The translations under genes and the position numbers were made by a program. From the IMG/VR virus record IMGVR_UViG_2579778894_000012: a stretch of 12,835 bases of DNA; one strand, written 5' to 3'. Positions 100 to 812 of this stretch are shown one piece after another. The first letter of the stretch is position 1; every line of letters begins with the position of its first letter. The notes under the pieces were generated by a model, which saw only the letters and a list, made by a program, of their open reading frames with translations, was not told the origin of the DNA and did no database searches. Source of the stretch: a virus. Its lineage: Duplodnaviria; Heunggongvirae; Uroviricota; Caudoviricetes.

Positions 100-489
100 T
101 CAGGCGGCTGCACCCGCCGTTTTCTCGTACTTACTGATAGTGATCTCGACCTTCCCTTTCGGGATAACCGGTCCCCACTCCACCAGCATTCTTTTCACCT
201 GTCTGTCGTCTTCCCACACACCCGCGTGGGTCAGGGCGTCAAACAGCGCCTTGTTATAGTTGTCCAGATCACGGATCCGGTTATCCGGCGGAAACAACAC
301 GATCTCCACTGAAGCAGGTGCCGACGTTGGTTTCGGCAGACGACGTAACTGCTCAACTATTGCTGCGCACGCCGCGCTCTGAAATTTTCGCCCCGCCTCG
401 CTTATCAGGCTCTTACCAGCAAATGCCCCTTTGTTGGGGTGTCGCCAGTACGTGTTCACACTGGGCGGGAAAGGAAGGATCAACTTCAT
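100..489 (-). CDS. rusA: RusA-family Holliday junction resolvase
   Basis: 129 aa; LPFPPSVNTYWRH, DNRIRDLDNYNKALFDALTHAGVWEDDRQV and a C-terminal ITI motif match E. coli RusA; start overlaps upstream stop (ATGA). Confidence 0.85.
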   Translation of the reverse strand: MKLILPFPPSVNTYWRHPNKGAFAGKSLISEAGRKFQSAACAAIVEQLRRLPKPTSAPASVEIVLFPPDNRIRDLDNYNKALFDALTHAGVWEDDRQVKRMLVEWGPVIPKGKVEITISKYEKTAGAAA

Positions 490-812
490 ACTTTCAGGCC
501 CCTCTCATGTAACCAGTGGGCTGCACGCAACCTGGCGCTCTCCTCACCGGCAAGCAGTGCGCGGATGATACCGACCGCTTCGCTGTCGTCGTCCTTCACT
601 GCGGTATGAAGCGTGATCCCCCGGGCCACGCCACGCTTTATCGTGATGACGCCTTTTTTCTCCAGTGCGCGAAGATGCTCCACCGCTGCATTCACTGAAC
701 GGTATCCCAGCATGGTTGCCACCTCCTGATTGGTTGGCGGAAAGCCACGCTCTTGCTGGTAAGAAATCAGCATATCCAGCACCTGCTGCTGGCATTGAGT
801 TAACGTCGTCAT
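486..812 (-). CDS. LexA N-terminal DNA-binding-domain-like protein lacking the S24 peptidase domain
   Basis: 108 aa; LTQCQQQVLDMLISYQQERGFPPTNQEVATMLGYRSVNAAVEHLRALEKKGVITIKRGVARGITL aligns closely with the LexA winged-helix domain; only a ~40-aa tail follows, no Ser/Lys dyad. ATGA overlaps at both ends. Confidence 0.7.
   Translation of the reverse strand: MTTLTQCQQQVLDMLISYQQERGFPPTNQEVATMLGYRSVNAAVEHLRALEKKGVITIKRGVARGITLHTAVKDDDSEAVGIIRALLAGEESARLRAAHWLHERGLKV

Follow-up and report, generated by a model that had tools for sequence, protein, structure and literature searches.

The LexA repressor of Escherichia coli (structures 1lea, 1jhh and 3jso) has the same N-terminal winged helix-turn-helix as a small protein encoded at 486–812 on the minus strand of the window, i.e. 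the whole 12,835 nt stretch of prophage DNA analysed here. The two proteins are 43 % identical across residues 1–90 (BLASTP, E=2e-21) and approximately 50 % identical over the DNA-binding domain (DBD). However, the window protein is without the S24 protease/dimerization domain, and hence without RecA-stimulated autocleavage, and it ends in an unrelated two-helix C-terminus.

The only phage-encoded protein of this general type that has been characterized comes from the Bacillus phage GIL01, a tectivirus of a Gram-positive host. Gp6 of GIL01 is homologous to LexA but truncated; it binds GaCACAnnTGTGaC and not the host LexA box, and it activates the late promoter P3 (PMC6182141). Like the window protein, gp6 has a LexA-type DBD and lacks the catalytic domain, and it is expressed from an early operon (PMC6182141), as is most likely for the window gene. 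However, in the model in PMC6182141, the wing is the last element of gp6 and no helical tail follows, and whereas gp6 binds a non-LexA palindrome and activates, the window protein keeps a recognition helix that is close to that of LexA. When 50,697 phage records were searched with the window protein using tblastn (E<=1e-5), only records of phages with enterobacterial hosts, and none of phages with Gram-positive hosts, were recovered. This search revealed no direct sequence relation to gp6 or its tectivirus homologues.

The engineered fusions used in LexA two-hybrid work are also relevant. In this system, sulA-lacZ is repressed when the LexA DBD is joined to an unrelated homodimerizing protein, but not by the DBD on its own (PMC7160566). 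These fusions (Dmitrova et al. 1998, as used in PMC7160566) are like the window protein in that a LexA DBD is followed by a heterologous module, which is a dimerizer in the fusions and a putative one in the window protein. They differ in being artificial and in containing the wild-type LexA DBD, whereas the DBD of the window protein has diverged.

The nearest described proteins are those of the SfV Orf42 family, which corresponds to PHROG 362 and to a RefSeq family with members in SfII, SfIV, cdtI, mEp460 and Stx2a/Stx2c phages. These are the same protein with the same PerC-Dam-X-RusA neighbours, and no substantive difference from the window protein was seen. The annotations of this family are homology-based. 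The match to phrog_362, which is labelled 'transcriptional repressor', extends over residues 1–108 of the protein and positions 1–106 of the 106 in the profile (E=9.4e-59). In tblastn searches, identities of 94–99 % were found in SfV (orf42), SfII, SfIV, cdtI, mEp460, several Stx2a/Stx2c/Stx2k phages and others. In phage records the homologues are variously labelled 'LexA-like protein', 'repressor, lexA family' or 'LexA DNA binding domain protein', and RefSeq uses 'LexA family transcriptional regulator', a name that, in protein searches, was also borne by clusters of thousands of proteins. A full-text literature search found no work on the function of SfV Orf42 and its relatives, though such work may exist elsewhere, and in the literature searched the name of the gene is based on homology only.

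At the nucleotide level, the gene was detected in 2233 of 5426 complete E. coli genomes (approximately 41 %), with up to four copies per genome. In 2222 of the 2233, copies cover at least 80 % of the gene at 90–100 % nucleotide identity. An HMMER scan and a profile search recovered relatives that likewise consist of a DBD followed by a tail of approximately 35–40 aa (105–135 aa in total), with identities of approximately 40 % and up. These were found in Citrobacter, Salmonella, Cronobacter, Klebsiella, Enterobacter, Kosakonia, Atlantibacter and Hafnia. A fold search of viral proteins showed that stand-alone LexA DBDs of 65–150 aa are widespread, occurring for example in uncultured Caudovirales, Mycobacterium phage Wildcat and Tectiviridae; the tectivirus proteins were weak fold matches only (ranks 15–16). 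The original prediction had treated the gene as unusual, but it belongs to an annotated family that is present in approximately 41 % of complete E. coli genomes. It is already catalogued, it is ordinary as a sequence feature, and phage DBD-only LexA homologues are a known kind of protein. When the 108 aa protein was compared with the PADLOC defence library only a marginal CARF-HTH match was obtained, and a part in a known defence system was rejected for this reason.

A LexA DNA-binding domain followed by a two-helix tail

The gene is a complete ORF (486–812, minus strand, including the stop codon) with an ATG start, and encodes 108 aa. Residues 1–65 match the Pfam LexA_DNA_bind profile (PF01726) over its full length, positions 1–65 of 65 (E=2.6e-19, 69 bits against a cutoff of 23.7), and the LexA DBD 1lea was matched by phmmer in a search of PDB sequences (E=6e-16). 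An AlphaFold2 (AF2) model, built on 36 family members, had a mean pLDDT of 83. In this model, the DBD is made up of helices at residues 6–22, 28–35 and 40–52 and a two-strand wing (56–58 and 66–68). Using Foldseek, residues 1–67/69 of the model fit E. coli LexA (1lea and the DNA-bound 3jso) at 1.0–1.3 Å, and superposition on the LexA DBD of the LexA-DNA complex 3jso gave 1.0–1.1 Å over 67–69 residues. On the basis of the Pfam match, the AF2 secondary structure and the Foldseek fits to 1lea/3jso, the LexA-type winged helix-turn-helix was placed at residues 1–68 (609–812, minus strand).

The rest of LexA is missing. Peptidase_S24 was not matched by Pfam in the 108 aa protein (486–812), which ends at residue 108, and the same Pfam scan did find this domain in the prophage's own cI-like repressor (5020–5694, plus strand; E=1.5e-26). 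The NCBIfam lexA equivalog profile (TIGR00498) was aligned over positions 1–91 of 203 only, and the score of 70.3 bits is below the cutoff of 110.95. Membership of the LexA equivalog was rejected because both the protease domain and the cutoff score were tested and both failed. As the 108 aa protein has no S24 domain, autocleavage and a response to RecA are impossible. The original prediction had described approximately 65 N-terminal residues of LexA winged-helix DBD, a tail of approximately 40 aa (here residues 69–108) and no S24 Ser/Lys peptidase domain, and this anatomy was borne out.

In the model, the wing is followed by an acidic linker (HTAVKD...) at residues 69–74 (591–608, minus strand), which is predicted with low confidence (pLDDT <50 at residues 72–75). 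Beyond it is a conserved tail, residues 75–108 (489–590, minus strand), with helices at 75–87 and 93–103. Among the 36 family members, A97 and L101 are invariant and A79, L82, L83, L86, L87, A93, I98, F/W100 and G105 are conserved. The tail is conserved down to 40 % identity, and AF2 predicts it with good confidence as a helical hairpin behind the flexible linker. A Foldseek search with the AF2 model found no structural match to the tail. A profile of the tail gave only sub-threshold matches to NIL domains in Pfam and a best E-value of 0.41 against PDB sequences, and the match to LexA was not significant using hhalign (probability 0.4 %). As the Pfam, PDB and hhalign results were all insignificant, the tail was rejected as a relic of the LexA cleavage region or of another known domain.

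The LexA features considered were the S24 dyad, Ser119/Lys156, and Ala84-Gly85, the site of RecA-stimulated autocleavage. In pairwise alignments, LLAGE in the tail pairs with VAAGE in LexA; this part of the window protein is predicted to be helical, there is no protease in cis, and Ala88 and Gly89 are found in 22 and 21 of the 36 family members, respectively. Because the tail alone has no significant similarity to LexA, the likeness of LLAGE to VAAGE is not independent evidence of a cleavage site.

With its many conserved hydrophobic residues, the two-helix tail of the model is most economically read as an oligomerization or partner-binding module, and it is probably a dimerization module. Some other stand-alone LexA-DBD proteins are tandem duplications of LexA_DNA_bind without S24 (P0128, P0135, P0140 and P0144). 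Reading these as single-chain pseudo-dimers, an alternative route to a non-cleavable bivalent binder, fits the need for two DBDs per site.

Recognition helix

The recognition helix, VNAAVEHLRALEK, comprises residues 40–52 (657–695, minus strand), and was assessed using alignments to LexA, counts for each column of the family alignment and a published list of contacts. In passages of PMC3091678 and PMC13416735 that cite the LexA-DNA structure work at second hand, the helix-3 DNA contacts of E. coli LexA are listed as Ser39, Asn41, Ala42, Glu44 and Glu45. The window protein reads S39-V-N41-A42-A-V44-E45, and so retains four of the five contacts in that list (S39, N41, A42 and E45). The LexA wing residues R64-G65-I66 are also retained. 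The differences from LexA are replacement of E44 by Val and of R28 by Asn.

Across the 36 family members, position 39 is always Ser and position 41 always Asn, and position 42 is Ala in 29. Position 44 is Glu in none, A, F, L, V, T or N being found instead. Position 45 is Glu in 21, Asp in 6 and Leu in 6, the Leu marking the Klebsiella clade. Positions 28, 40, 42 and 43 also differ among these 36 members. In the E. coli clade, the recognition helix is identical to that of LexA at 9 of 12 positions and, judged from these alignments, this clade, which includes the window protein, is the nearest to LexA in the family. The Enterobacteriaceae that serve as hosts should have one common SOS (LexA) box. 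That the recognition helix differs among clades even though the hosts should share one SOS box is the pattern expected of diverging operator specificities, and this family-wide variability weighs against a universal role as a LexA mimic.

Genomic position and SOS boxes

The prophage is lambdoid, and the gene occupies its nin region, with the replication genes on one side and the gene for the Q antiterminator on the other. It is the third gene in a tight run, PerC-Dam-LexA_DBD-RusA, all on the minus strand. The run begins with a PerC/YfdN-family gene (1462–1956), which has a TAATG overlap with the gene for a phage N-6-adenine methyltransferase (Dam, 809–1462; PF05869, TIGR01712). The mechanical ORF for Dam reaches a GTG at 1495, but the ATG at 1462 agrees with the start annotated by RefSeq in relatives. 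The LexA-DBD gene is followed by that for the RusA Holliday-junction resolvase (100–489). At 809–812, the start ATG of the LexA-DBD gene (812–810) overlaps the Dam stop TGA (811–809), and at 486–489 the stop TGA of the LexA-DBD gene (488–486) overlaps the RusA start ATG (489–487). These ATGA overlaps on both sides suggest the translational coupling that was named in the original prediction. Separately, Dam is named 'phosphoadenosine phosphosulfate reductase' in the RefSeq phage records NC_003444, NC_009514 and NC_019716 and in phrog_33262, which looks like a propagated error.

The arrangement in E. coli and Shigella prophages is cI | cro - cII-like - Rha - replication - PerC - Dam - LexA_DBD - RusA - KilA-N - DUF968 - Q - lysis. 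In Cronobacter, it is Dam - LexA_DBD - one ORF on the opposite strand - RusA - Rha/ANT - DUF968 - Q, and the Klebsiella prophages have dinI - orf - LexA_DBD - orf - DUF968 - lysis. The relatives at 40–60 % identity in Salmonella, Cronobacter, Klebsiella and others occupy the same position in the nin region.

When the strand of the window that carries the LexA-DBD gene was scanned, no promoter-like site was found upstream of the gene, and terminator-like matches were found inside coding sequence only. As it has no promoter-like site of its own, the gene is most likely a delayed-early product of the rightward (pR-type) operon, from which the cI-like S24 (autocleavable) repressor gene diverges. 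From the organization of lambdoid genomes, expression would most likely be delayed-early after induction or infection.

Some other features of the window were recorded. Two AT-rich inverted repeats flank the repressor gene at 4926–4962 and 5739–5777. That between cro and cI (TCATACAATATGTA / TACATATTACATGA) is probably an immunity operator, and the other is an imperfect 19 nt palindrome directly 3′ of cI. An Ash/Rha-family regulator gene (2989–4137, minus strand) is interrupted by a TGA nonsense codon at codon 40 (4018–4020), and the longest ORF left restarts at the GTG at 4002. The nearest relative, the prophage L002, has AGA (Arg) at this codon and an intact ORF of 382 aa, a difference of one base (window position 4020). 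A YafO-toxin-like ORF (11247–11681, minus strand; PF13957, E=2e-21) is directly 3′ of an ORF of 179 aa with a hydrophobic N-terminus (11698–12237, minus strand). This pair may be a toxin-antitoxin-like moron; PADLOC gave no match for it. An RdgC-family gene (6146–7264, plus strand; PF04381, E=1e-30) is found on the leftward-operon side of the prophage. As E. coli RdgC modulates RecA, this gene is a further RecA/SOS-linked gene of the same prophage.

SOS boxes were sought in the window and in related phages. With up to one mismatch allowed, there are 5 CTGT-N8-ACAG sites in the window, where 4.4 are expected, and among CTG-N10-CAG sites in the window and in L002 none agrees with the consensus at more than 12 of 20 positions. 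Hence, the SOS boxes named as targets in the original prediction do not rise above chance in the window. When all CTGT/ACAG spacings were scanned in three complete phages that carry the gene (SfV, cdtI and mEp460), only the canonical N8 was enriched (11 sites against 2.6 expected). The N8 boxes are dinI-type boxes, a box at the start of a post-Q methyltransferase gene and a box inside the mEp460 repressor gene; both cdtI and mEp460 have dinI genes with SOS boxes. An identical box, TACTGTAAAAATAAACAGTG (16/20), spans codons 3–9 of the DNA methyltransferase gene between Q and holin in all three phages, at 34170 in SfV (L012), 44083 in cdtI (L010) and 41021 in mEp460 (L011). All of these boxes can be host-LexA sites, and the spacing result therefore does not discriminate between the hypotheses considered below. 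We also note that boxes matching the consensus at 17–18 of 20 positions (TACTGTTTTTACATACAGTA and TACTGTTTTTATATACAGTA) occur within XRE-S24 cI-type repressor genes in two genera, at 31970–31989 in mEp460 (L011) and at approximately 2190 in Cronobacter prophages (L006, L007 and L008).

In the Klebsiella prophages (L003, L004 and L005; 5385–6393), a dinI homologue has an 18/20 SOS box across its promoter region, approximately 600 bp upstream of the LexA-DBD gene. The genes that follow dinI, with no obvious terminators, are a 96 aa ORF, the LexA-DBD member (130 aa), a 67 aa ORF and DUF968. Because of this SOS box and the run without obvious terminators, the LexA-DBD gene of the Klebsiella clade may be SOS-inducible.

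A shallow search for other operators was also made. Every short inverted repeat that this search returned from the window fell within coding sequence, and no candidate operator emerged from them. Exact 6-mer palindromes common to SfV, cdtI and mEp460 were found in homologous coding sequence only, where they are inherited by descent.

Possible roles of the protein

We tentatively favour the explanation that the stand-alone DBD, dimerized by its tail, binds SOS boxes as a repressor that is proof against RecA after host LexA has been cleaved, though we give it less than an even chance. It starts from what was observed: a full-length DBD with the fold of LexA, in which most contact residues are kept (S39 and N41 in 36/36), the absence of a protease, a conserved tail and a conserved genomic position. 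Dimerization, the DNA target and the physiological effect would then be as follows. Upon induction or infection, the nin-region gene would be expressed delayed-early from the rightward (pR-type) operon, and expression from an early lytic operon would place its action after cleavage of host LexA. The C-terminal two-helix hairpin would most likely join two copies. Because a LexA DBD with any homodimerizing partner represses sulA (PMC7160566), a short dimerizing tail would be sufficient. The dimer would bind two CTGT-type half-sites, in host-type SOS boxes on the chromosome and in phage morons such as dinI. RecA* could not remove this dimer and repression would persist once host LexA had been cleaved, so that the SOS regulon and the LexA-controlled genes of the phage or of competing elements would be silenced again.

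There is also circumstantial support in the SOS- or RecA-linked company of the gene, namely the dinI box of the Klebsiella prophages, the dinI genes of cdtI and mEp460, the N8 enrichment and the 16/20 methyltransferase box in SfV, cdtI and mEp460, the RdgC-family gene of the window and a phage RecA gene beside a natural LexA_DBD-DUF968 fusion. However, this company is non-specific, and control of dinI-type morons by host LexA explains the boxes adequately. Repression of SOS boxes is also partly undercut by the loss of Glu44, the variability of the recognition helix, the gp6 precedent and the lack of an above-chance SOS box in the window and L002. Damping of the SOS response is nevertheless plausible in view of the four retained contacts and of the repression of sulA by fusions of the LexA DBD to a dimerizer and, of the original interpretation as a whole, the anatomy stands, the rarity of the gene does not, and the occupation of SOS boxes is mechanistically plausible. 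The extended form, in which a surrogate LexA re-occupies SOS boxes after induction and shuts down the SOS regulon together with genes under LexA control on co-resident prophages, colicin plasmids and morons, is in our estimation rather unlikely.

The window protein may instead be a dedicated phage regulator that has its own, drifted operator and represses or activates a phage promoter, such as that of a moron or of a late-region or recombination/nin function. By analogy with gp6 we consider this the main alternative, possible if somewhat doubtful. It would account for the differences at recognition-helix positions 40 and 42–45 among clades whose hosts should share one SOS box, and for the loss of Glu44 in all 36 members examined. 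Stand-alone LexA DBDs are also commonly carried by unrelated phages, and gp6 is a precedent both for binding a sequence other than the host LexA box and for activating P3 (PMC6182141). However, neither the inverted repeats nor the common palindromes, all of them in coding sequence, provide a candidate operator, there is no promoter of the gene's own on which autoregulation could act, and late control in lambdoid phages is already supplied by Q. The recognition helix of the E. coli clade is, moreover, still 9/12 identical to that of LexA.

It is improbable, though less so than simple decay of the gene, that the protein is an adaptor, with the tail binding a partner (such as the neighbouring DUF968 His-Me-finger protein, RecA or an S24 repressor) and the DBD tethering this partner to DNA, or that the protein titrates such a partner. 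The conserved hydrophobic face of the tail, which has no known fold relative, would suit such a role. A natural fusion of a LexA DBD (residues 33–94) to DUF968 is encoded by P0153 (L009, 6001–6723), which follows a split phage RecA gene and immediately precedes Q, but this fusion was found on a single contig and is without the tail. DUF968 also follows the LexA-DBD gene at a distance of 1–3 genes in prophages of E. coli, Cronobacter and Klebsiella. However, DUF968, RusA and Q are generic neighbours in the nin region (PMC5714182), and this proximity may therefore be mosaic synteny only.

A decaying, functionless remnant of a captured lexA is very improbable and is excluded by conservation, since, despite the resemblance to a truncated LexA and the frameshifts in some database copies (P0024, P0030 and P0109), 2222 of the 2233 E. 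coli genomes with the gene keep at least 80 % of it at 90–100 % nucleotide identity, full-length relatives at approximately 40 % identity retain both DBD and tail in several genera, and the tight ATGA overlaps are preserved. A pseudogene or chance ORF was likewise rejected on conservation.

Few accessory genes are as common as this one in the lambdoid prophages of E. coli and Shigella, Stx2-, cdt- and serotype-converting phages included. If the protein has an operator of its own, it would represent an unrecognized extra regulatory layer in the nin region. Should its target be SOS boxes, the phage would encode an SOS modulator resistant to inactivation by RecA, and this would bear on the antibiotic-triggered induction of Stx phages and on competition between prophages. 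If it acts as a surrogate LexA, approximately 40 % of E. coli genomes would carry a phage SOS brake that is active in lytic growth, and this would affect the induction of Stx phages, competition among prophages and mutagenesis driven by the SOS response.
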